DNA of 32,682 nucleotides from Candidatus Zambryskiibacteriota bacterium (GCA_023264565.1 JAHFLV010000007.1:1-32682); one strand, 5' to 3'; positions 24,800 to 32,682 are shown, numbered from the stretch's first letter. Made by a program: numbers and translations. Notes: generated by a model from the letters alone, not told the origin.

Positions 24800-26227
24800 A
24801 TGCAGAAAAACACAACAAACTATTCACCCCGCTCTGCTAGTATGAATGGCATGCAAAACATGCGACCGAACCTGAGAATTCCTCCACAAAATCTCGACGC
24901 GGAGACCGCGCTTTTGGGTTCGATCATGCAGCGCCCTGATGTCATCTACGAAATGGGAGACATCGTCAGCGCCGAATCTTTTTACGCAGAAAAGCATCGT
25001 TTGATTTTTGTCGTCATGATGGAGCTTTTCAAAAGAAGTTCCCCGATCGATCTCCTTTCAGTTTCTGCTCGACTCAAAGAAAAAGGCCAGCTCGAACAAC
25101 TTGGCGGTTCAAGTTATTTGGCCGAACTTGTTCAGGGCGTGCCGTCTTCAACCAACGCACTCTACTACGCTCAGATTGTGCAGAAAAAATACATGATGCG
25201 TCGCCTCATTGAAGCGGCCGAGCATGTTTCAAATTTAGGATACGACGAATCCACCGATATCGAAGAAATTCTTGATCGTGCAGAAAAACACGTTTTCGAC
25301 GTCACCAACTTTTCTACCGCTCATAAATTTATCGAACTCAAAGACGAACTTTCCGAGGCCTGGGAACGTCTCGACAAACTCCACAACACCAAAGAAGGTC
25401 TTCGAGGTGTTCCGACAGGCTTTGCCGAACTCGACGGCAAACTCGCCGGCTTCCAAAAATCCGATCTCATCATCCTTGCCGCTCGACCATCAATGGGAAA
25501 AACTTCCCTTGCGCTCGACATCGCTCGTTATTCTGCAGTCAACCACAACACTCCTGTTGGAATCTTTTCTCTTGAAATGAGTTCACAGCAGCTTGTCGAC
25601 CGTATGCTTGCAGCGCAGTCAAACGTCGACGCTTGGAAACTCCGAACTGGAAAATTGAACCGTGCGGAAGAATTCGAATCAATCCGCCAGTCGCTTGACC
25701 AACTTTCGAAAGCACCAATTTTCATTGACGACCAGCCAGGTAACAACATTTTAAAGATGCGCTCAGTCGCCCGTCGACTCAAAAGCGAAAAAGGTCTTAA
25801 GCTTTTGGTCGTTGATTACCTCCAGCTCATGGTGCCACTTGGTTCAAAAGCCAGTGACAACTTAGTCCAGCAAGTGACCGAAATTTCCCGATCCCTTAAA
25901 AACTTGGCCCGTGAACTCGACGTGCCGGTTCTTGCACTTTCCCAGCTTTCCCGAGCCGTTGAACAACGCGGAGGTCGCCCTCGTCTTTCAGACCTCCGAG
26001 ACTCCGGTTCTATCGAACAGGACGCCGACGTCGTGCTTTTTATTCATCGCGAAGACAAATACAAAGAAGAATCAGAGAAAAATAATATCGCTGAAATTTT
26101 GATTGAAAAGCATCGAAACGGCGAAACCGGCAAGGTTGAACTCTATTTCAATGATAAGAAAGTTACTTTCCAGAGCATGGCTAAGGGCGAATATGGTGGT
26201 GCCGAAAAAGAATTTGCGAACTTCTAA
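24800..26227 (+). CDS. dnaB: Replicative DNA helicase
   Basis: ARPSMGKT, FSLEM, VDYLQL, SDLRDSGSIEQDAD, KHRNG. Exact start uncertain. Confidence 0.98.
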   Translation: MQKNTTNYSPRSASMNGMQNMRPNLRIPPQNLDAETALLGSIMQRPDVIYEMGDIVSAESFYAEKHRLIFVVMMELFKRSSPIDLLSVSARLKEKGQLEQLGGSSYLAELVQGVPSSTNALYYAQIVQKKYMMRRLIEAAEHVSNLGYDESTDIEEILDRAEKHVFDVTNFSTAHKFIELKDELSEAWERLDKLHNTKEGLRGVPTGFAELDGKLAGFQKSDLIILAARPSMGKTSLALDIARYSAVNHNTPVGIFSLEMSSQQLVDRMLAAQSNVDAWKLRTGKLNRAEEFESIRQSLDQLSKAPIFIDDQPGNNILKMRSVARRLKSEKGLKLLVVDYLQLMVPLGSKASDNLVQQVTEISRSLKNLARELDVPVLALSQLSRAVEQRGGRPRLSDLRDSGSIEQDADVVLFIHREDKYKEESEKNNIAEILIEKHRNGETGKVELYFNDKKVTFQSMAKGEYGGAEKEFANF

Positions 26228-26274
26228 TACCAATATACTCAGGCGAAATAAAGTTTCGATTAATTTTTATTAAA

Positions 26275-26889
26275 ATGAATTCGTTTAACCGACTTATTGA
26301 AATATTCTCTGACTTCCCTGGCATTGGGCCGCGTCAAGCCAAGCGCTTTGTCTATTTTCTTTTAACCAAGCCGCCAGCATATACTGGCGAACTTTTGCGC
26401 GCTATCGAAAATCTCAAAAACAATACCCAAACCTGCAGCTCATGCTACAGAATTTTTAATAAAAATGGTGGAATGGCCACACTGTGTTCAATTTGCTCAG
26501 ACAGAAATCGCGACCACTCACTTCTGGCCGTTGTATCACGCGACAGTGACCTCGAAAGTCTCGAAAAAAGCGGCTCATATAATGGTCTGTATTTCGTACT
26601 TGGTGGCATAGTTCCGATCCTCGAAAATGATCCTGAAAAATATGTGCGCAGTCGAGAACTTTTCACTTCGGTCGAAAAAAGAATCGGTGATGGACTTACC
26701 GAAGTCATTCTTGCTATGAGTGCCAACGCCGATAGTGAAAATACTGGTCAATTTGTCGACCGACTTCTTGTTCCATTTAAAGAAAGGGGCCTCAAAATTT
26801 CTCTCCTTGGCCGTGGCCTTTCAACTGGCACCGAACTTGAATATTCTGACGCCGACACCCTTCGAAACGCGCTCAAAAATAGAAAGTAA
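26275..26889 (+). CDS. recR: Recombination mediator RecR
   Basis: PGIGPRQAKR HhH, C4 zinc finger, Toprim domain, ELEYSD. Confidence 0.95.
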   Translation: MNSFNRLIEIFSDFPGIGPRQAKRFVYFLLTKPPAYTGELLRAIENLKNNTQTCSSCYRIFNKNGGMATLCSICSDRNRDHSLLAVVSRDSDLESLEKSGSYNGLYFVLGGIVPILENDPEKYVRSRELFTSVEKRIGDGLTEVILAMSANADSENTGQFVDRLLVPFKERGLKISLLGRGLSTGTELEYSDADTLRNALKNRK

Positions 26890-26918
26890 ACTCAGTTTTA
26901 GTTCATATTAGAGATCTA

Positions 26919-26947
26919 TTGACTTAAGGTAAATTTAATGATACTGT
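26919..26947 (+). promoter_or_regulatory. sigma70 promoter TTGACT-N17-TACTGT (extended TG)
   Basis: -35 at 26919-26924, -10 at 26942-26947. Confidence 0.65.
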
Positions 26948-26981
26948 TTACCCAGAAGCATTTTAAAGAAAGGGGGCTTCG

Positions 26982-27302
26982 ATGTTGAATCAGCTGATGA
27001 GCTATCTACATCCCTTGATCTCAACGATCATTGTGTTTGTAGTTCTCATGGCCATTCTAAGCTATGGTTTCGCCTATATGTTTGGCGGCCAGAGCTACGC
27101 GAATCGTGTTCGCGTGAAGCTCATGGACTTCTTTATCTGGAGTCCACTCAAATGGCTCCGGAGAAAGTTGATCTACGAACCGGCCAAGTATCTCAAGAAA
27201 AAGGCCAAGGCGTGGGCAACCAGTCTACTTCGGTGGGCTGGAAGAGGGATCATGGCATTGCTTCGTCGATTTTGGGTCAAGGTCAGGGCTTGTTGGCCCT
27301 GA
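26982..27302 (+). CDS. Hypothetical membrane protein with basic, Trp-rich C-terminus
   Basis: AAGGGGG SD; N-terminal TM helix; own promoter and terminator. Confidence 0.7.
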   Translation: MLNQLMSYLHPLISTIIVFVVLMAILSYGFAYMFGGQSYANRVRVKLMDFFIWSPLKWLRRKLIYEPAKYLKKKAKAWATSLLRWAGRGIMALLRRFWVKVRACWP

Positions 27303-27311
27303 CCTTTTTTT
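27281..27311 (+). terminator. Intrinsic terminator overlapping the stop codon
   Basis: GGTCAGGGC-TTGTTG-GCCCTGACC-T7. Confidence 0.85.
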
Positions 27312-27312
27312 A

Positions 27313-27341
27313 TTGACTTACATTATTTACTGATTTACAAT
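27313..27341 (+). promoter_or_regulatory. sigma70 promoter TTGACT-N17-TACAAT
   Basis: -35 at 27313-27318, -10 at 27336-27341. Confidence 0.75.
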
Positions 27342-27376
27342 CCTCTTTGGTCATTTTACAAAGAAGGAGGCATTGA

Positions 27377-27544
27377 TTGGCACGAACCAGAAGATCGTTT
27401 AGTCCAAGCAAGGGTGTCGCAAAGGCTCGGAGGTACCAGGAAGACTTGCGGGCATCCCGCGGTTTCCACTGCTCCACTCTTGCTCCACCGACTCATGGAC
27501 CAAGCAGACGGAAGTTTCCTCGCCGACTTGCGGGCACACATTAG
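27377..27544 (+). CDS. 55-aa Arg-rich peptide (MARTRRSFSPSKGVAKARRYQEDLRASRGFHCSTLAPPTHGPSRRKFPRRLAGTH)
   Basis: AAGGAGG 6 nt upstream of TTG 27377; bracketed by a promoter and a terminator; not in the ORF track. Confidence 0.6.
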   Translation: MARTRRSFSPSKGVAKARRYQEDLRASRGFHCSTLAPPTHGPSRRKFPRRLAGTH

Positions 27545-27572
27545 TAACCCCACGTAACTCGACCAACCCCAT

Positions 27573-27600
27573 GCTCACGCGACACCGCGTGAGCTTTTTT
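27573..27600 (+). terminator. Intrinsic terminator
   Basis: GCTCACGCG-ACAC-CGCGTGAGC-T6. Confidence 0.85.
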
Positions 27601-27625
27601 ATTCTCCTAGATCTTTTTATATCTA

Positions 27626-27653
27626 TTGACATATAATTTTAAAATTGTAAAAT
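27626..27653 (+). promoter_or_regulatory. sigma70 promoter TTGACA-N16-TAAAAT
   Basis: -35 at 27626-27631, -10 at 27648-27653. Confidence 0.65.
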
Positions 27654-27712
27654 CTTCCAAGAATTGCTCACTGAAATACTGCTAAACAAAAGAACACAGA
27701 AGGAGGCTCATT

Positions 27713-28600
27713 TTGGAACAGAACGGCGCGGAAAAGAAAAGTCCGCTTATCGGACTCGTTGGAGTAGTAGGAATCTGGGTTACGGCGGGACTCGCCCTGC
27801 CATTTGTAAACGTGCGGAAGGAGTTTACACCCGAACAGCTGATGGTGTTTCGTGGTTTCTTACCTGCCCTGATCGCGTTTGTGTTGCTTCGGGGCAAGAT
27901 CGGTAAGGTGGACAAATACACCTGGTTGATCGGCCTCACACTTCCCCTTGCAACCCTCGGCTTGTTTGAGGGTATTCGCAACTGGGGCGTTGGTCCGACA
28001 TTAATTGTCGTCACGGGGACGCCGGTTGTAAACTTCTTCATTGGAAGATTTCTGAAGAGACCGGTGTCGGATATGACGATCACGAGTCTGATAATCATGA
28101 TTTGCGGAGTTGCTCTCGCCTGCAAGGGCGGACACTTCAACTGGCCGGGGTTCCTCTGGAGCGTCGAGGGAACGATTGCGAACGGTATTCTGTACGAACT
28201 ATTCGCCAGGGCAAAAACCAAGCCGCTACAAAAATGCTTCTTTTCATGCTTCGGCATGGGTGCTCTTGGTCTGCTACTCAGTTTCGCTGATGCCACACCC
28301 TGGGTAGCAGAAACCTTCACCCTACCAATGACCCTTCAATTAGTTACCTTTGCTTTCGTTGGCGGTTTCCTGTACTGGATTGCCAACCAGGCCGCCTTCA
28401 AGCATCTGGAGACTATGCGGGCGAGCGTTCTCGCGCAAGGAGAGACACCCGCGGCAATGATCGGCGCCTACCTTCTGCTCGGAGAAAAACTGAGTATGAA
28501 TCAGTGGGTCGGAACAATCATCGCGCTTGCGGCCGCAGTCTCTTTGGTCTACGCTACAGCCAAAGAAGCAAAAGAACCTGCAGCAGTAGCTACAACATAA
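27713..28600 (+). CDS. EamA/DMT family transporter
   Basis: 10 TM helices, FRG motif, ETPAAMIGAYLLLGEKLS; AAGGAGG SD with TTG start. Confidence 0.88.
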   Translation: MEQNGAEKKSPLIGLVGVVGIWVTAGLALPFVNVRKEFTPEQLMVFRGFLPALIAFVLLRGKIGKVDKYTWLIGLTLPLATLGLFEGIRNWGVGPTLIVVTGTPVVNFFIGRFLKRPVSDMTITSLIIMICGVALACKGGHFNWPGFLWSVEGTIANGILYELFARAKTKPLQKCFFSCFGMGALGLLLSFADATPWVAETFTLPMTLQLVTFAFVGGFLYWIANQAAFKHLETMRASVLAQGETPAAMIGAYLLLGEKLSMNQWVGTIIALAAAVSLVYATAKEAKEPAAVATT

Positions 28601-28611
28601 ACACAACAATG

Positions 28612-28644
28612 TGCCGCCCTGGCTTTCGGGGCGGTTTTCTTTTG
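28612..28644 (+). terminator. Intrinsic terminator of the EamA gene
   Basis: GCCGCCCTG-GCTTT-CGGGGCGGT followed by TTTCTTTT. Confidence 0.75.
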
Positions 28645-28650
28645 TTTACA

Positions 28651-28792
28651 AAAGTCTCCACTCATTTGAAGGAGACTTTCGGAACCCGAGCAATGACCTC
28701 TTTGTGAAGTAAAAGTATGCGAGGGTGAGAGGGAGCAAAAAACCACCGGAAGGTGGTTTTTATGCGTGCTCCTGAAAATGAGTGGAGACTTT
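28651..28792. repeat. Long-arm palindromic element, copy 1
   Basis: 24-bp inverted arms (28651-28674 / 28769-28792), 22/24 complementary, enclosing two hairpins. Confidence 0.8.
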
Positions 28793-29111
28793 ATTTAATC
28801 TTCTCGATCTGAACCTTCATGAATGGCTGTCGGTGACCGTTTTTCTTGAAGTATCGGCTCTTTTGTTTGTATTTGATCACAGTAACCTTTGGAGCTCGGC
28901 CAGCTGATTTGAAAGTGGCTTCAACCTTTGCACCTGAAATGAAAGGTGTGCCGATAGTAGTATTTGAACCGTCATCAACCAAGAGAACCTTGTCGAAAGT
29001 GACCTTATCACCTTCTTTCATATCACCATCAAGCTTCTCAATAGTAATAACATCGCCAGATTTTACCTGGTATTGCTTGCCGCCGGTTTCGATGACTGCG
29101 TATTCGTTCAT
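28791..29111 (-). CDS. rplU: 50S ribosomal protein L21
   Basis: YAVIETGGKQY, IGTPF, GHRQPF. Start moved to the ATG at 29111. Confidence 0.98.
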   Translation of the reverse strand: MNEYAVIETGGKQYQVKSGDVITIEKLDGDMKEGDKVTFDKVLLVDDGSNTTIGTPFISGAKVEATFKSAGRAPKVTVIKYKQKSRYFKKNGHRQPFMKVQIEKIK

Positions 29112-29225
29112 ATCCGGATATTCTACATATATACGGGAAAAATGCAACAAATAGGCCCAATAGAGCCGTTATTTGGGCAAAACACAGTAGATAGCCTGAA
29201 AGGCATCAGAACCCTTGTGTTACCA

Positions 29226-29253
29226 TTGACTTTTTATAAATTAGTGCTATTAT
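29226..29253 (+). promoter_or_regulatory. sigma70 promoter TTGACT-N16-TATTAT (extended TG)
   Basis: -35 at 29226-29231, -10 at 29248-29253. Confidence 0.7.
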
Positions 29254-29328
29254 AAATACAGAAGCTGGTTATGTTTCCAGCCCTGATCCACGAAGGAATC
29301 GTGGAAACTCCATTTGTTGGGAGATGTC

Positions 29329-29400
29329 ATGAACAAGTCTCGAGTCGCGTTCTATGCCTTTCTGGCAATCATGCTCGGCTTCGCTCTGGCCTCGATCTAA
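29329..29400 (+). CDS. 23-aa hydrophobic peptide MNKSRVAFYAFLAIMLGFALASI
   Basis: GGGAG SD 5 nt upstream; structured leader; terminator downstream; not in the ORF track. Confidence 0.6.
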   Translation: MNKSRVAFYAFLAIMLGFALASI

Positions 29401-29423
29401 TCCATCAAACTGAAGATTCGAAC

Positions 29424-29453
29424 ACCGCCCGCACTCTGTGCTGGCGGTTTTTT
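29424..29453 (+). terminator. Intrinsic terminator
   Basis: ACCGCC.GCAC-TCT-GTGC.GGCGGT-TTTTT. Confidence 0.8.
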
Positions 29454-29488
29454 ATTACACACGAACAATCAAATATTATTTAAGAAAG

Positions 29489-29643
29489 AAAAAACCCACC
29501 ATGCTTTGCAGCTAGGTGGGTGTCGACAAGCTAGGTCCTGATGGAACTTATTGTCTGGGTCAGACAGAGAATGTTCGAACGCACTCTCTTTCTCTTACCA
29601 CTTCGGACTTTCATCCGCGTATTGGTTCCCGGACCGCTCGTGT
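29489..29643 (-). ncRNA. Candidate ~155-nt structured sRNA with its own promoter and terminator
   Basis: Promoter TTGACC-N16-TAGGAT (29650-29677); closing stem plus three internal hairpins; terminator ACCCACC/GGTGGGT plus T tract at 29489-29521. Confidence 0.6.
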
Positions 29644-29716
29644 TTGGATATCCTAACTCTTTAATGATTTCGGTCAAGGATTATCCTCGTTTTATTTTTC
29701 TGTTTTTAATCCCTGT

Positions 29717-30823
29717 TTATTCTTCCTGGTCAGTATCGGGTTTTGCGACAATCACAGACTCGAGTCCGGCTGAATTTCCAGCGATTTTCAAAACGTCTTT
29801 ATCAATTTTTAAAAGTTCTTTTTGAGCACGGTTGTAGTGGTTTACCGTTGTACCAAGAGATGAGCCAAGCGACGACATGTATTGGTCGTATGCAGCAATA
29901 TGTTTACCTAAATCCTCTACCCTCTTTCGAATCTCTTTAGCTGATTCTTCGATTTGTAGTGCCTTGAGACCCTGGAGAACGGTCTGGAGATATGCCAAGA
30001 AAGATGTTGGTGAGGTAATGATGACTCGGCGATCTTTGAAGGCGTATTCGATAAGGTCACGAGTATTCACTTTAACCGCACCAACCTGAGCGACCAGAAG
30101 GTCATAATAGATGGCTTCGTGCGGAATAAACATGAACGCAAAGTCCATAGTGTTTTCAGCTGGCTTTACGTACTTTGAAGTTTCATCGATGCGGTTTTTG
30201 AGATCGCGACGAAACGCGGTTTCGAGCTCTTCACGTCGAACTGGATCTTTTTCATCAACTAAACGATTGTAATTTTCGAGAGAAAACTTTGAGTCGATCG
30301 GAATGATTTTATCTTTTACAAAAACCACAGCGTCGACGATCGTGCCATCGTTGAACTCGTACTGCATTTGGTAGCTGCCGGTCGGCATCACGTTCTTCAA
30401 AAGGGTTTCCAAATAGTATTCACCCAAAATACCGCGTTGCTTTGGATTTTTCAAAATGTCCTGCAAAGACTGAAGCTGGTCAGCAAAAGACACAACTTGT
30501 TTGTTTGTTTCGTCGAGCTTAGTGAGCCCCATAGTGACATCGCGAATGAGCTTTGCGGATTCACCGAACTGATTTCGCATCGATTCGTTTTGGTTGCGCA
30601 TTGATTCACTCACCTGTCGGTTGGTCTCGCCCATTTTGGCATCGATAGTTTTTGAAAGTTCGTTAATATGCTGGAGCATGAGTGACATGGCTGGATCTGG
30701 CTTCCCCGCCAATTCATCTTCTGACTTTTTTGCATTACTAAGCCGTTGCATCAAAACCCACAGAAAACCAGCGTTTAATAAAACAATAATTGCGACGATT
30801 ATGATGACAGCGGTAGTAGACAT
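29717..30823 (-). CDS. rmuC: DNA recombination protein RmuC
   Basis: N-terminal TM helix, coiled coil, KQRGILGE, PIDSKF, DFAFMFIPHE, SPTS. Confidence 0.93.
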   Translation of the reverse strand: MSTTAVIIIVAIIVLLNAGFLWVLMQRLSNAKKSEDELAGKPDPAMSLMLQHINELSKTIDAKMGETNRQVSESMRNQNESMRNQFGESAKLIRDVTMGLTKLDETNKQVVSFADQLQSLQDILKNPKQRGILGEYYLETLLKNVMPTGSYQMQYEFNDGTIVDAVVFVKDKIIPIDSKFSLENYNRLVDEKDPVRREELETAFRRDLKNRIDETSKYVKPAENTMDFAFMFIPHEAIYYDLLVAQVGAVKVNTRDLIEYAFKDRRVIITSPTSFLAYLQTVLQGLKALQIEESAKEIRKRVEDLGKHIAAYDQYMSSLGSSLGTTVNHYNRAQKELLKIDKDVLKIAGNSAGLESVIVAKPDTDQEE

Positions 30824-30870
30824 GGGGCAATTATACTACAGGGCGCGGCTTATGATACTATTTTCTCCAT

Positions 30871-31326
30871 ATGACACTTCAAGAAAAAATCAAAAGCGAT
30901 ATGGTTCAGGCAATGAGAGACAAAGACGCTGTAAAGGTTAGCGTTCTTCGCGGTCTTATGGCCAATTTCACAACTGAACTTGTGAATAAAAAGCGAAAGC
31001 CAGATGAAGTATTAAGTGACGAAGAAGTTACGACCGTCATCATGCGAGCTATCAAGCAACGCAAAGACTCAATCGACCAATTCAAAAAAGGTGGTCGCGA
31101 AGATCTTGTGGCTTCTGAAACAGCTGAGCTTGCGGTGATTGAAGGTTTCGCTCCTAAACTCATGTCTCCTGAAGAAATTATGGTATTCGCAAAACAAAAG
31201 AAAGCAGAAATGGATGTTGCTGATAAAACCGGAATGGGCAAACTCATGAGCGCTCTTATGAAAGATCTCAAGGGAAAAGCAGATGGTGCTGATGTTAAAA
31301 CGGCAGTTGAGTCGTTATTCCAATAA
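30871..31326 (+). CDS. yqeY: GatB/YqeY domain protein
   Basis: IKSDMVQAMR, KQRKDSIDQF..GGREDL, MGKLM...KGKADG. Confidence 0.92.
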   Translation: MTLQEKIKSDMVQAMRDKDAVKVSVLRGLMANFTTELVNKKRKPDEVLSDEEVTTVIMRAIKQRKDSIDQFKKGGREDLVASETAELAVIEGFAPKLMSPEEIMVFAKQKKAEMDVADKTGMGKLMSALMKDLKGKADGADVKTAVESLFQ

Positions 31327-31380
31327 CCAACCCTCCAGAAATAACATAAAAAATGCCCGCAAATTAGTGGCTTTTATATA

Positions 31381-31409
31381 TTGACAAATAGCATGAATAG
31401 TGCTATTAT
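31381..31409 (+). promoter_or_regulatory. sigma70 promoter TTGACA-N17-TATTAT (extended TG)
   Basis: Near-consensus elements at 31381-31386 and 31404-31409. Confidence 0.8.
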
Positions 31410-31470
31410 ACAAACAGAAATAACGTCACCGTGTTGGTGACAAAACAGCACTTTTACAGGAGCTAGAAAA

Positions 31471-31893
31471 ATGAATCAGCGTGATTTTGTTAACCGTATC
31501 ATGGGCTTCATGACAGCAATCGTACTCATCGCAATTCTTGCTTTTGTGTTCACCCACATTGGGGGCAAGACCGTCAGCGTGGAGTATGTGAATCTGCCAT
31601 CGGCCCGGGCGTTCAGCCTGCAGGTGCCGACCATCCAGAGCGAGAATGCGGTCTGGGCAACGAACACACCCTTCAAGATGACCTACATCTTCCCAGACAA
31701 GTCGCATGCGATCTACCAGACACCCGACAACCAGCTCGTGGAAACCACGAACAAGCAGGTCATCGACCTGGTCAACCGCAACGAGTACTTCGTCATAAAC
31801 GAAGGGGCGTATCGTGGTCCTCACGGCCTGATGAAGCTCACCGAGCATGACATCGACTTCACCAAGGCCGACTACTACGCCGTCGGCCCGTAA
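31471..31893 (+). CDS. Hypothetical single-TM protein
   Basis: AGGAG SD; N-terminal TM helix; codons visibly C/G-ending compared with neighbours. Confidence 0.75.
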   Translation: MNQRDFVNRIMGFMTAIVLIAILAFVFTHIGGKTVSVEYVNLPSARAFSLQVPTIQSENAVWATNTPFKMTYIFPDKSHAIYQTPDNQLVETTNKQVIDLVNRNEYFVINEGAYRGPHGLMKLTEHDIDFTKADYYAVGP

Positions 31894-31917
31894 ACTCGAA
31901 CGATATCGAGTACACCA

Positions 31918-31947
31918 AACACCTTGCGATAGCGCGGGGTGTTTTTT
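31918..31947 (+). terminator. Intrinsic terminator
   Basis: AACACCTTGCG-ATAG-CGCGGGGTGTT-TTTT. Confidence 0.8.
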
Positions 31948-31970
31948 ATTTCTAAAATTTCCTGAGATTC

Positions 31971-32401
31971 CTACAACTTTTGTGCCGTAATAAAAAGCTT
32001 ATTAAAAGGAAATTCCATCCCACTTTTTGGTTCCCGTCTTTCAACTCTCATTATTCGAAAACCCGCATTCTCCAAATATTTTCTAATTTCAGCTTCAGTA
32101 AATAAATTAATGAACATTTTTACTTCCGGTTTATATACAACAGAAAAATATCCATCTCGATCCATTGACGTAATTGGTTCTTGTAATGCAAGGTATGCGT
32201 AGCCACCAATTTAAGCACCCGAGCAATTCCTTCAACCGACATCGTCACATCTTTTTCCGGAATATGAATCAGAGAATAATTTGCAAAAACACCATCAAAA
32301 CTTTTATCTGGGAAATCCAATTTGCGTAAATCCATTTGAATCATTTTGAGGTCGGGGTGTTGCAAACTACAGCCTCTTTTCTGGCTTTCTGAAAACTTCA
32401 A
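31971..32401 (-). pseudogene. Truncated, frameshifted class I SAM-dependent methyltransferase
   Basis: MDLRKLDFPDKSFDGVFANYSLIH...ARVLK continues in another frame as GGYAYLALQEP (1-nt deletion near 32210); N-terminal GxGxG motif absent. Confidence 0.8.
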
Positions 32402-32420
32402 AACAATGAAAGACTTCGAG

Positions 32421-32492
32421 TGACCCTACGGGGAATCGAACCCCGCTTTGGAGCTTGAGAAGCTCCCGTCCTAGCCGATAGACGATAGGGCC
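32421..32492 (-). tRNA. tRNA-Glu (anticodon CTC); CCA not encoded
   Basis: GGCCCTA acceptor/TAGGGTC-A, anticodon arm GGAGC-TTCTCAA-GCTCC, T arm GGGG-TTCGATT-CCCC. Confidence 0.97.
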
Positions 32493-32514
32493 ATAGTACT
32501 ACGCACAGAACATA

Positions 32515-32543
32515 AACTTACCTCAAAAGTAGCTTGATTTCAA
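32515..32543 (-). promoter_or_regulatory. Probable tRNA promoter TTGAAA-N17-TAAGTT
   Basis: -35 at 32538-32543, -10 at 32515-32520. Confidence 0.45.
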
Positions 32544-32654
32544 ACAAAGATAAGACATTTGAGAAATGAGTTTCCGGAGGCGCGTAGGCGCCGAGAGTAG
32601 CGAAAACCCAGCAGGGTTTATCGCGCTCATTTCGAGAATGTCTTATCTTTGTTT
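32542..32654. repeat. Long-arm palindromic element, copy 2
   Basis: 29-bp inverted arms (32542-32570 / 32626-32654), 26/29 complementary, enclosing two hairpins. Confidence 0.8.
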
Positions 32655-32682
32655 CCACTCAGGCTCCTGACGGACCAAAAGC

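Follow-up and report, generated by a model that had tools for sequence, protein, structure and literature searches.

Interspersed palindromic elements with a shared three-way-junction core and copy-specific closing stems in Paceibacteria-type Patescibacteria

Introduction

The 32,682-nt contig of a Candidatus Zambryskiibacteriota bacterium (JAHFLV010000007.1), here called the window, contains two short palindromic elements that have the same centre and different outer arms. How can the arms differ from copy to copy and still pair within each copy? A conserved core with a site-specific stem points to an unusual mode of copying or spreading. An earlier note, made from the sequence alone, had offered three readings: a novel non-coding RNA, a non-autonomous mobile element, or an element whose arms arise by inverted copying of the target site. 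The reading as a whole was supported by the present analysis, and inverted copying of a flank is the option favoured by the evidence.

Results

Architecture of the two copies

Both copies lie on the + strand, at exactly 28651-28792 and 32542-32654 (Table 1). The earlier note had assigned them one common plan, and this was confirmed, including the shared blocks CATTT-GA, TTTC(C)GGA, GAGAG and GA-RAATG. Copy 1 is closed by a perfect 17-bp outer stem, followed by a GA/GA internal loop and a 5-bp helix, P2, and its three-way junction carries hairpin 1 (43 nt) and hairpin 2 (31 nt). The note had described perfect pairing of the arms in both copies; this held for copy 1, and the 19-bp outer stem of copy 2 consists of 18 Watson-Crick pairs and one U.G. 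Copy 2 also has the GA/GA loop, with an 8-bp P2 and hairpins of 14 nt (hairpin 1) and 25 nt (hairpin 2). The described layout was correct overall and had missed a further short helix, P3, which is formed by CUUUC/GAGAG in copy 1 and by UUUC/GAGA in copy 2 and bears hairpin 1 behind a GGA bulge. The tandem G.A pairs are real in both copies and do not define the family: the GA/GA loop is typical of the genus, and many relatives have a continuous helix at this position.

Table 1. Positions of the two elements and of their neighbours in the window
Feature	Position	Strand	Basis or remark
GC-rich terminator hairpin of the upstream EamA-type gene	28613..28640	+	Fold; just before copy 1, outside the element
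Copy 1 (type A), 5' outer arm, 17 nt	28651..28667	+	Pairs perfectly with 28776-28792
Copy 1, GA of GA/GA internal loop, P2 5' strand AGGAG, one junction base	28668..28675	+	MFE fold
Copy 1, P3 5' strand CTTTC, GGA bulge, hairpin 1 (28684-28726), GAGAG (P3 3' strand), GGA junction	28676..28734	+	
Copy 1, hairpin 2, bulged A	28735..28765	+	Terminator-like: A-run, CCACC stem, T-run
Copy 1, junction GTG, P2 3' strand CTCCT, GA, 3' outer arm (28776-28792)	28766..28792	+	
Ribosomal protein L21 gene	28791..29150	-	Pfam PF00829, E 3.6e-36
tRNA-Glu(CTC)	32420..32492	-	ARAGORN and Rfam tRNA, 53.8 bits; divergent from copy 2
Copy 2 (type B), 5' outer arm, 19 nt	32542..32560	+	Pairs with 32636-32654
Copy 2, core: GA, P2 (GAAATGAG/CTCATTTC), P3 (TTTC/GAGA) with CGGA bulge, hairpin 1 (32579-32592), hairpin 2 (32600-32624; AGCA loop, bulged A), GA	32561..32635	+	
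Copy 2, 3' outer arm	32636..32654	+	

The ordinary terminator at 28613..28640 indicates that the arms of copy 1 come on top of a normal terminator. The L21 gene is convergent with copy 1, and the final 2 nt of the 3' arm belong to its stop codon. Beside the orthologous L21 gene, the element was absent in G003 and G004, the two congeners whose flank was read (G000 denotes the 580-kb source genome, other G numbers related genomes). Copy 2 starts 49 nt from the tRNA-Glu(CTC) gene; the contig ends 28 nt past this copy, leaving its downstream neighbour out of view.

A family of interspersed elements

The same plan was found in 12 full copies of G000 beyond the two in the window, and hundreds of matches were detected in relatives, well beyond what chance would give. 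In total, G000 holds 14 full copies and a fragment; the copies fall into two subtypes (A and B) and are scattered across 10 contigs. Among the seven type A copies, P2 is identical in six and AAGAG/CTCTT in the remaining one, and hairpin 2 occurs in three variants, each self-pairing. Hairpin 1 of copy 1 has an insertion of about 35 nt relative to type B. The GGA/GA loop next to hairpin 1 varies, being GCA in 2 and GCG in 1 of the 14 copies.

The covariance-model search proposed in the earlier note revealed many further copies. The model CM R1, which matches copy 2 at 32553-32643 with 85.9 bits, found the element in all 9 other genomes of the same taxonomic family. Across the order, 40 of the 101 genomes had matches, between 1 and 37 each; of 150 additional genomes drawn from across the phylum, 5 were positive. 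A search for the core pattern in about 185,000 species genomes gave matches confined to Patescibacteria-type MAGs, in line with the group named in the earlier note. In agreement with the absence of a recognised family in the note, Rfam 15 gave no match over either copy at E up to 10, tRNA-Glu alone reaching the gathering score in the window; the sole match over the 12 other copies at E up to 1 was FinP (20.2 bits versus a cut-off of 45). The elements are an undescribed family of interspersed elements of about 100-160 bp in Paceibacteria-type Patescibacteria, tiny groundwater bacteria.

Within the genus, site conservation is lacking; an element was present at just 3 of 30 tRNA-Phe loci, and the orientation of copies relative to neighbouring genes is not fixed. 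Decayed copies were also detected: G003 has one with an internal deletion, G001 a 'mini' form, and both G000 and G009 contain half copies.

Fold, covariation and strand

The + strand of copies 1 and 2 folds with -66.0 and -59.4 kcal/mol (z -9.0 and -11.1; none of 200 shuffles folded as well), versus -59.2 and -53.5 kcal/mol for the - strand. In an alignment of 43 matches from about 30 genomes, itself fitted to the covariance model, 95.7% of the cells pair, when compared to only 37.8-52.6% with slid partners. Both-sided changes were present in 33 of 34 pairs, and none of 500 shuffles attained any of these measures. The three-way-junction fold with an outer stem, P2, P3 and two hairpins is thus well supported, and in many copies the arm helix continues into P2 with no spare loop bases.

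The arm pairs comprised 246 Watson-Crick, 14 G.U, 1 A.C and 3 other in G000; 610, 31, 3 and 14, respectively, in G009; and 118, 6, 0 and 1 in G043. Over the three genomes, 51 G.U stood against 4 A.C on the drawn strand, indicating that a single strand does the folding. This strand-specific wobble bias and the strong covariation uphold the selected single-strand fold that the earlier note had suggested, and the folding strand acts most likely as RNA. Four copies are located 3-8 nt upstream of a same-strand tRNA gene (tRNA-Thr and tRNA-Phe, in both G000 and G009); these would probably be transcribed as leaders, except where the tRNA promoter sits within the element. The copies immediately upstream of tRNAs have no T-run, and the arms of G000 are AT-rich.

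Local arms around a spreading core

All 14 arms of G000 differ from one another, and the 5' arm sequence of copy 1 occurs once in the genome except for isolated 11-mer matches. Those of G009 are also different, with the exception of one segmental duplicate and of inner ends common within some subfamilies. When the cores of G009 were compared, 13 of 703 copy pairs were at least 93% identical; the median arm identity was 45% in these pairs and 43% in pairs with unlike cores, the one exception being the segmental duplicate.

Comparison with congeners gave filled and empty sites. G000 is empty at sites filled in G004/G005 and in G002, and G003 carries a 93%-identical core at a different locus with different arms. 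A site filled in G004 is empty in G005 and G007; elsewhere, orthologous copies of G004 and G005 retain the same arms with one wobble change. The 93-100% identical cores with unrelated arms, together with the sites filled in one congener and empty in another, indicated that the core spreads and the arms are local. Identical cores could alternatively reflect gene conversion between old copies.

Some arms can contain older, pre-existing sequence, judging from the gene ends they cover. In both G000 and G003, the ruvX-side arm begins in the last two codons and the stop (AAG AAA TAA), and the far arm contains the exact inverse of that gene end; the KK end of the RuvX protein is present in 5 of 7 congeners. 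In G009, arms reach over the final 4-5 codons of two genes, one BipA-type and one encoding a response regulator. The arm judged older was the 3' arm at ruvX of G000 and the 5' arm at ruvX of G003 and at tRNA-Phe of G000, giving an inconsistent direction of copying. Features within 10 nt were more frequent at the 3' arm than at the other (27 versus 6, of 52), a difference that was not significant in paired tests.

The earlier note had also advised comparison with empty orthologous sites to see whether one arm pre-exists. Empty sites were indeed found, and for the arm only a weak alignment was obtained (arm and flank of G000 versus the empty tRNA-Phe site of G006; score 20, equalled by 23 of 500 shuffles). 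The congeners are about 20% diverged in coding DNA and mostly unalignable in intergenic DNA; no same-species empty allele was found, and a pre-existing single arm in an empty site was not demonstrated by the congeners compared. No consistent direct repeat was seen by eye in the flanks of the 14 copies of G000.

The arms of G000 do not resemble the terminators of the same genome: they have a median of 19 bp, GC of 0.29 and inner GC of 0.31, versus 12 bp, 0.45 and 0.71 for its 37 plain hairpins. A GC-rich stem followed by a T-run was seen in hairpin 2 of type A and in some arms of G009. Several of the latter look exactly like bidirectional terminators (A-run, CCCC, then GGGG, T-run), which counts against fold-back copying. 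In G043, two copies have an identical 73-nt inner part and 10-bp arms differing at four pairs, of which three are compensated and one is a wobble. These differences fit re-copying between the two arms. In G043, however, not only the arms but also the flanks are related among copies, suggesting that there the arms move along with the element, which argues against local writing.

Search for a partner protein

No HUH/Y1 transposase or reverse transcriptase associated with the element was found when such genes were sought, as the earlier note had recommended, and no enzyme able to move the core came to light. PF00078 (reverse transcriptase) had no match in G000, G001, G003, G004, G005 and G007, and G043 was not among the 41 positive genomes. 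Over the 101 genomes of the order, reverse transcriptase occurred in 41 and the element in 40, with both in 17 against 16 expected; the mean copy number of the element was 8.0 with reverse transcriptase and 6.4 without it. The absence of the enzyme from G000 and several element-bearing relatives led us to reject a retron ncRNA (msr-msd), and the chance-level co-occurrence a SINE-like retroelement moving by target-primed reverse transcription. PF01797 (RAYT/Y1 transposase) had no match in G000; of the 9 other genomes of the taxonomic family, 8 likewise had none and one had a weak match below the cut-off. A single genome of the 101, other than G000, had a match to the L7Ae family (PF01248); together with the variable GGA/GA loop next to hairpin 1, this spoke against an L7Ae-bound K-turn RNP. 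An integron attC was likewise rejected, as the outer ends are here the variable part and the copies are dispersed, unlike the conserved R''/R' sites of cassette arrays. RNase III is encoded in G000.

Discussion

The reading we prefer, with a probability of roughly one half, is a non-autonomous mobile structured element whose arms would arise by fold-back copying of one flank, a process that would also keep them perfect. The core, which carries no gene, would be the spreading unit, now or formerly, within and between genomes, moving without a dedicated enzyme in present genomes. In the G000 lineage, the arms would not be transported; they would be made from local DNA by fold-back (snap-back, template-switch) synthesis, in which a strand with the folded core turns back at P2 and copies one flank inverted onto the other side. 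Later rounds would re-copy one arm from the other, so that the arms would stay perfect, diverge fast and in step, and grow outward until halted by a neighbouring gene, tRNA or promoter. Selection acting on the drawn strand, most likely at the RNA level, would afterwards maintain the pairing. A more far-reaching version is offered tentatively and is less probable: a gene-less structured core of about 60-110 nt with no fixed ends may be a new kind of prokaryotic mobile element, writing and re-copying its own closing stem by fold-back synthesis seeded at the three-way junction. If so, every copy would become a perfect, growing palindrome unlike any other, and movement of the core as RNA or single-stranded DNA with host polymerases alone, if it occurs, would amount to transposition without a transposase.

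The arms look like the product of template switching at quasipalindromes, where a nascent strand folds at an inverted repeat and copies itself, reportedly a model due to Ripley. Such switching perfects imperfect palindromes or makes inverted duplications (PMC7467729, PMC3907307, PMC7954356), and fold-back inverted duplications via single-strand hairpins are documented in yeast and human DNA (PMC7467729, PMC3907307). Known events are sporadic and involve arbitrary repeats, whereas here they would be a regular trait of one family, seeded by its folded core.

The arms might instead be old stems, a mobile core having entered the apical loop of existing hairpins, mainly long palindromic bidirectional terminators. 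G000 does contain 37 perfect hairpins with stems of 11-16 bp, versus 0-2 in shuffles, and most are A-run/GC/T-run terminators; arms often begin at a stop codon, the usual terminator position, and the outer 5' end is A-rich (so the 3' end T-rich) in 12 of 14 arms of G000. This polarity is missing in G009 (17 positive versus 16 negative), the genome in which several arms have the exact terminator look. The arms of G000 are longer and AT-rich, without the GC-rich centre of its real terminators; copy 1 and the C25 copy adjoin a normal terminator instead of lying inside one, many arm/core joints have no leftover loop bases, and unoccupied long AT-rich hairpins are few in G000. G005 has a 24-nt perfect palindrome at the orthologous site where G004 carries an element, which could be a pre-existing target hairpin, and in G007 the intergenic stretch after ruvX, which holds elements in G000 and G003, has a 15-bp hairpin. 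An element of G003 with 24-bp arms lies inside the loop of a hairpin also present in G000, but the corresponding 23-nt loop of G000 has no palindrome, and five of the six empty sites read were without one (C47 and C19 in G000, site 1 in G005 and G007, tRNA-Phe in G006). Precedents exist, as IS1397 and IS110-family elements insert into REP palindromes and class C group II introns at terminators. Such hairpin-targeting elements, inserting beside or into intergenic palindromes, are kilobases long and encode their own enzyme, while the present element has no such linked gene and no association with reverse transcriptase. ISPpu9 is reported in REP as well (PMC12288879). On balance, we consider insertion into loops unlikely.

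Equally improbable is a host-serving RNA family, in which a stable RNA would be cut from longer transcripts at the long stem by RNase III, or by RNase P before a tRNA, and selection would act on stem pairing only, old paralogues drifting to their own stems with cores kept alike by selection or gene conversion. The strong covariation, the conserved loops and bulges of the core, the bias of G.U over A.C, the RNase III gene, the orthologous G004/G005 copies with the same arms, and the copies before tRNAs, which would form leaders if the tRNA promoter is located upstream of them, all suit this explanation. Cores identical over 70 columns nevertheless bear unrelated 20-bp arms, which slow drift cannot explain, as it would also alter unpaired core positions; the patchy presence, decayed copies and lack of a set orientation are further points against it. 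A guide-RNA-like system, with the arms as specificity determinants storing both target strands as a hairpin on a protein-binding scaffold, is very improbable. It would account for a constant scaffold with variable segments of 13-28 nt, and TIGR-Tas, which it loosely resembles, occurs in Patescibacteria, one array type having 'variable but consistently palindromic' stems according to PMC12045711. TIGR stems, however, serve only as closures, and the units form tandem arrays beside a Tas gene, have box C/D-like motifs and keep their variable spacers in the loop; the present copies are dispersed, without arrays, their loop is constant, and no box C/D-like motif was seen in them. The arms match elsewhere in the genome only as isolated 11-mers and include neighbouring gene ends, and L7Ae is absent. 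Two long arms had no exact match in viral contigs, and the 17-mer of copy 1 occurred in seven viral-contig stretches without wider similarity, about the chance number by a rough estimate made without a control.

Among repeat families, REP/REPIN are likewise small, gene-less, multi-copy extragenic palindromes, often at 3' ends, that fold as a single strand and break short-read assemblies. Their stems are conserved among copies and their loops trivial, in contrast to the complex conserved centre and differing stems found here, and they have RAYT (Y1 HUH) transposases, which were not detected in G000 or in 8 of the 9 other family genomes. Bacterial MITEs (Correia/NEMIS, ERIC, RUP, BOX) have terminal inverted repeats common to copies, direct target-site duplications and a related IS. 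The present elements resemble them as non-autonomous repeats of 100-200 bp with long hairpins in transcripts and possible terminator-like hairpins, but their terminal repeats are copy-specific in G000 and G009, and no parent element was seen. The copies of G043, with arms partly shared and flanks related, come nearest to a MITE.

Two copies with one plan in the window

The two palindromic copies proposed in the earlier note were confirmed at the positions listed in the table, where each consists of a conserved core (P2, P3 with hairpin 1, hairpin 2 and a three-way junction) closed by an outer stem whose strands are called arms here. The overall plan of the fold in that note held, but a short helix, P3 (CUUUC/GAGAG, UUUC/GAGA), had been overlooked; in both copies P3 carries a GGA bulge and bears hairpin 1, which is far shorter in copy 2 than in copy 1. 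Folding of the plus strand gave -66.0 kcal/mol for copy 1 and -59.4 kcal/mol for copy 2 (z of -9.0 and -11.1), and the minus strand folded more weakly (-59.2 and -53.5). A search of Rfam matched neither copy at E up to 10, in agreement with the earlier failure to recognise a known family.

Coordinates of features in the genome of the window (G000); C13 is the window contig
Feature	Contig	Position	Strand	Description
Copy 1 (type A)	C13	28651-28792	+	perfect 17-bp outer stem, GA/GA internal loop, 5-bp P2, three-way junction
Copy 2 (type B)	C13	32542-32654	+	19-bp outer stem (one U.G), GA/GA loop, 8-bp P2, three-way junction as in copy 1
tRNA-Glu(CTC)	C13	32420-32492	-	sole RNA gene found in the window
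RmuC-family gene	C13	29717-30823	-	between copies 1 and 2; Pfam PF02646, E 8.9e-53
Type B and type A copies	C4	25279-25560		opposite strands, 9 bp apart, between ruvX and the next gene
Empty site	C47	41404-41437		filled in congeners G004 and G005
Plain hairpins	C13	4048-4074, 27279-27306		inside the window
Plain hairpin	C9	4498-4531
Plain hairpins	C19	12758-12793, 24800-24835
Plain hairpin	C47	39031-39069
tRNA, undetermined type	C19	11587-11661		four-base anticodon (tcca), ARAGORN
Palindromes	C8	7965-7991, 8258-8284		near-identical, 290 bp apart

The window contig stops 28 nt past copy 2 (32654-32682), and contigs of one groundwater metagenome run (X1) end at 28739 or start at 28749, within hairpin 2 of copy 1. 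No contig joint skipping copy 1 or copy 2 was found when three such runs (X1-X3) were compared with positions 26000-32682. The copies have the practical effect of breaking short-read assemblies, and copy numbers in draft genomes are therefore lower bounds. RmuC is credited with restricting inversion between short inverted repeats; the position of its gene between the two copies is probably a coincidence.

Size and distribution of the family

A search for further copies had been proposed, and the family proved larger than is visible from the two window copies alone. A motif search followed by nhmmer added 12 full copies and one 3' fragment in G000 (580 kb in 48 contigs, estimated 92% complete), giving seven copies each of type A, with the 43-nt hairpin 1 of copy 1, and of type B, in which hairpin 1 measures 14-16 nt as in copy 2. 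The covariance model R1 was built from the type B copies of G000 alone, because a MAFFT alignment of both types together was structurally wrong. On the whole of G000 it recovered 7/7 type B copies and 1/7 of type A, and when the copies were searched alone, 2/7 of type A; as type A is detected poorly, the copy counts in relatives are lower bounds.

The search of other genomes proposed earlier gave R1 matches in 40 of the 101 genomes of the order (G000 counted), including all nine other genomes of its family, and in 5 of 150 other genomes drawn evenly across the phylum. The exact core pattern matched 26 stretches in a species-genome collection, all titled as MAGs of Candidatus Paceibacteria/Paceibacterota, Taylorbacteria, Zambryskibacteria or 'uncultured Candidatus Saccharibacteria', and had zero matches in a viral collection. 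When metagenomes were scanned with the window's RmuC protein, 80 loci came back, from which strain-level empty sites were not obtained because the closest protein was 74% identical; R1 had five matches in these and 12 congener loci (566,595 bases in all). Full-text searches of the literature turned up no paper that reports an element of this kind in Patescibacteria.

The copies belong to an undescribed repeat family that is defined by its structure, is widespread in Paceibacteria-type Patescibacteria and combines a conserved centre with stems specific to each site. Patescibacteria have some of the smallest bacterial genomes and their non-coding biology is little known; here a single family takes up as many as 37 intergenic sites in one 800-kb genome of the order, the highest R1 count. 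To our knowledge, every bacterial repeat described so far has the opposite architecture to this one, in which the structured centre is constant and the stems vary with the site, and explaining it requires either an insertion mechanism or a class of processed RNA that is new. R1 is also a ready lineage marker.

Conservation of the fold and the folding strand

The proposal that the fold is selected was supported by 43 matches from about 30 genomes. Standard pairs occupied 95.7% of the cells, compared with 37.8-52.6% when the 3' partners were slid by 1-3 columns; the alignment was fitted to R1, which favours the fold, and the slid controls carry an equal bias. Both sides had changed in 33 of 34 pairs, and none of 500 shuffles reached any of the pairing or covariation measures. 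Conserved across the family were the hairpin 2 loop (AGCA/AGUA) with its bulged A, the CGU junction and the GAG-rich strand. The GA/GA loop was not conserved, many relatives having a continuous helix instead. A kink-turn beside hairpin 1 (CUC-UCG-GA/GA-GAG) was rejected, as most type A copies have a weak or mismatched C-stem, 3/14 copies have another sequence in place of GGA, and L7Ae is absent from G000 (1/101 genomes of the order has it).

Among the 264 arm pairs of G000, 246 were Watson-Crick, 14 G.U, one A.C and three other. Without strand-specific selection, G.U and A.C mismatches are expected to be about equal, and their ratio on the drawn strand was 14:1 in G000, 31:3 in G009 and 6:0 in G043, the last two being other genomes of the order. 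Since this bias is one-sided, the drawn strand is the one that folds. The folding molecule would be that strand as RNA or single-stranded DNA, and RNA appears more likely from the sequences compared. In G000, the copy on C21 stops 3 nt before tRNA-Thr(GGT) and the copy on C24 stops 8 nt before tRNA-Phe(GAA), each on the strand of the tRNA, and in G009 the distances upstream of tRNA-Thr and tRNA-Phe are 5 and 6 nt. Copies at these positions would be transcribed as leader sequence if the tRNA promoter is not within the element. RNase III is encoded in G000. A search for RNA runs that contain the locus returned none. The copies place long hairpins close to stop codons, tRNAs and promoters, with possible effects on transcripts such as termination, insulation or loss of stability.

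Spreading cores and local arms

The outer arms of the G000 copies (13-28 bp) were different in 14/14 copies, each pairing with its own partner, and had only isolated 11-mer matches elsewhere in the genome. From G009, 371 kb with 38 R1 matches were fetched, and the cores grouped into subfamilies; 13 of 703 copy pairs were at least 93% identical over 70 core columns, four of them 100%. Median arm identity was 45% in the like-core pairs and 43% in unrelated copies. The exception was one segmental duplicate, extending into the start of a tRNA, whose two arm differences were both compensated. The core spreads and the arms are local in G000 and G009, where carriage of the arms with the element is ruled out by the pairs with identical cores and unlike arms. 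In G043 (13 copies fetched), where arms of 8-11 bp and even the flanks were related among copies, the whole hairpin seems to travel.

Site occupancy also varied among congeners. At the C47 site that is empty in G000, G004 and G005 carry an element with arms in common (one wobble change); on C19, too, the element is missing from G000 and present in G002; and a site filled in G004 is empty in G005 and G007. A G003 copy with a core 93% identical to that of the G000 copy on C25 lies in another place with other arms, and G001 has a type B copy with reversed orientation and other arms in an intergenic region that holds a type A copy in G000. Decayed copies were found as a 3' half in G000 and as 5' halves just upstream of two G009 copies.

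Arms at gene ends

In the C4 pair next to ruvX, the type A arm starts within the last two ruvX codons and stop (AAG AAA TAA), and the opposite arm holds the exact inverse of this coding end. Because KK ends the protein in 5/7 congeners, the coding end is old and the inverse new. A decayed, internally deleted type A copy in G003 has an arm starting at the same codons, and G001 has another decayed copy, a 'mini' form without hairpin 2. Neither the element nor the inverse was present downstream of ruvX in G002, G004, G006 and G007; in G007 the region has only a GC-rich 15-bp hairpin. In G009, likewise, a BipA-type gene and a response-regulator gene each have their last 4-5 codons inside an arm. 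Of the 52 copies of G000 and G009, 27 have a tRNA or the start or end of a gene no more than 10 nt from the 3' arm, and six have one that close to the 5' arm. The median neighbour distances are 7 and 50 nt; when the two sides were compared in pairs over the full range of distances, the asymmetry was not significant (Wilcoxon p 0.26, sign test p 0.17). One reading is that arms grow outward until the overwritten side meets unchangeable sequence.

Origin of the arms

The reading that we favour, with a probability of about 0.5, is that the folded core would seed fold-back copying of one flank into an inverted arm, that the arms would later be re-copied one from the other, and that selection would then act on the folded strand. 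The arms at ruvX and at the G009 gene ends count in its favour. Many copies have a helix passing from arm into P2 that leaves no bases unpaired, which is what uninterrupted synthesis onward from P2 would produce. At tRNA-Phe, the 5' flank and 5' arm start of G000 align to tRNA-adjacent G006 sequence that holds no palindrome, a weak alignment equalled by 23/500 shuffles. Two G043 copies share an identical 73-nt inner part and have arms differing at four pairs (three compensated, one wobble). Ordinary compensatory drift should be slower than change in the unpaired core; re-copying would yield just such a pattern.

Insertion of cores into hairpins that already exist is an unlikely source of the arms. 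Several G009 arms do resemble bidirectional terminators, and A is enriched at the outer 5' end of 12/14 G000 arms, a bias that the G009 arms lack. Plain perfect hairpins with stems of 11 bp or more number 37 in G000 and 0-2 in shuffles; they are terminators with a GC-rich centre (median stem 12 bp, inner GC 0.71), whereas the element arms are longer and AT-rich (median 19 bp, GC 0.29, inner GC 0.31). Copy 1 adjoins an ordinary terminator and is not inside it. A 24-nt perfect palindrome in G005, where G004 has the element, could be a target, but could instead be a remnant whose core was lost between two TCATTT repeats. A G003 element with 24-bp arms sits in the loop of a hairpin common to G000, but the G000 loop holds no palindrome. 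The evidence on copying versus loop insertion is mixed and leans to copying. We also consider it improbable that the elements are a family of processed RNAs serving the host. No conserved promoter upstream of the arms was seen by eye in the 14 flanks of G000. Direct duplication of a palindromic target was rejected as the source of P2 and the GA loops, since P2 mirrors the inner arm in copy 2 only, and a fixed position upstream of tRNA-Phe was rejected with the element at only 3/30 loci.

Candidate enzymes and other observations

Searches of the 101 genomes for reverse transcriptase (RT), Y1 transposase and L7Ae found no mobilising enzyme. RT (PF00078) occurred in 41 genomes, 17 of them with the element (16 expected), and was absent from G000, G004, G007 and G043, which have 7-24 R1 matches between them. 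An RT near an element in G052, another relative, was group-II-intron-like, below the cut-off and beside infC, and no link to the element was seen. Y1 transposases (PF01797) were found in 57/101 genomes, but the family of G000 had only one sub-threshold hit. Outside the family of the window, many genomes of the order (G048, G050, G089 and others) encode several Y1-family proteins of ~230 aa, up to 13 in one genome.

The arms were also considered as guides, which they do not resemble. Two long arms were not matched exactly by any viral contig, and the 17-mer of the copy 1 arm matched seven viral stretches without wider similarity, a chance-like number by rough estimate. In one 216-kb viral contig (L253), a repeat of ~100 nt, otherwise unlike the element, holds this 17-mer at 1088, 3352 and 7820.

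The plain hairpins of G000 have stems of 11-16 bp and loops of 3-12 nt, and most of the 37 are bidirectional terminators with an A-run, a GC-stem and a T-run, the runs being exact complements even where interrupted. Four congeners have a degenerate copy of a tRNA 5' part (acceptor strand and D-arm) 20-70 nt upstream of tRNA-Phe (L226 in G001, L213 in G004, L211 in G005, L212 in G006), with ...TAGCTGTTTTGGTAGA in place of ...TAGCTCAGTTGGTAGA, and a tRNA-Thr fragment of similar kind follows one G009 element (L141:1153-1185). The AT-rich 12-bp palindromes on C8, TTCAAG(A/G)TCACA-aat-TGTGA(T/C)CTTGAA, look like operators rather than terminators.
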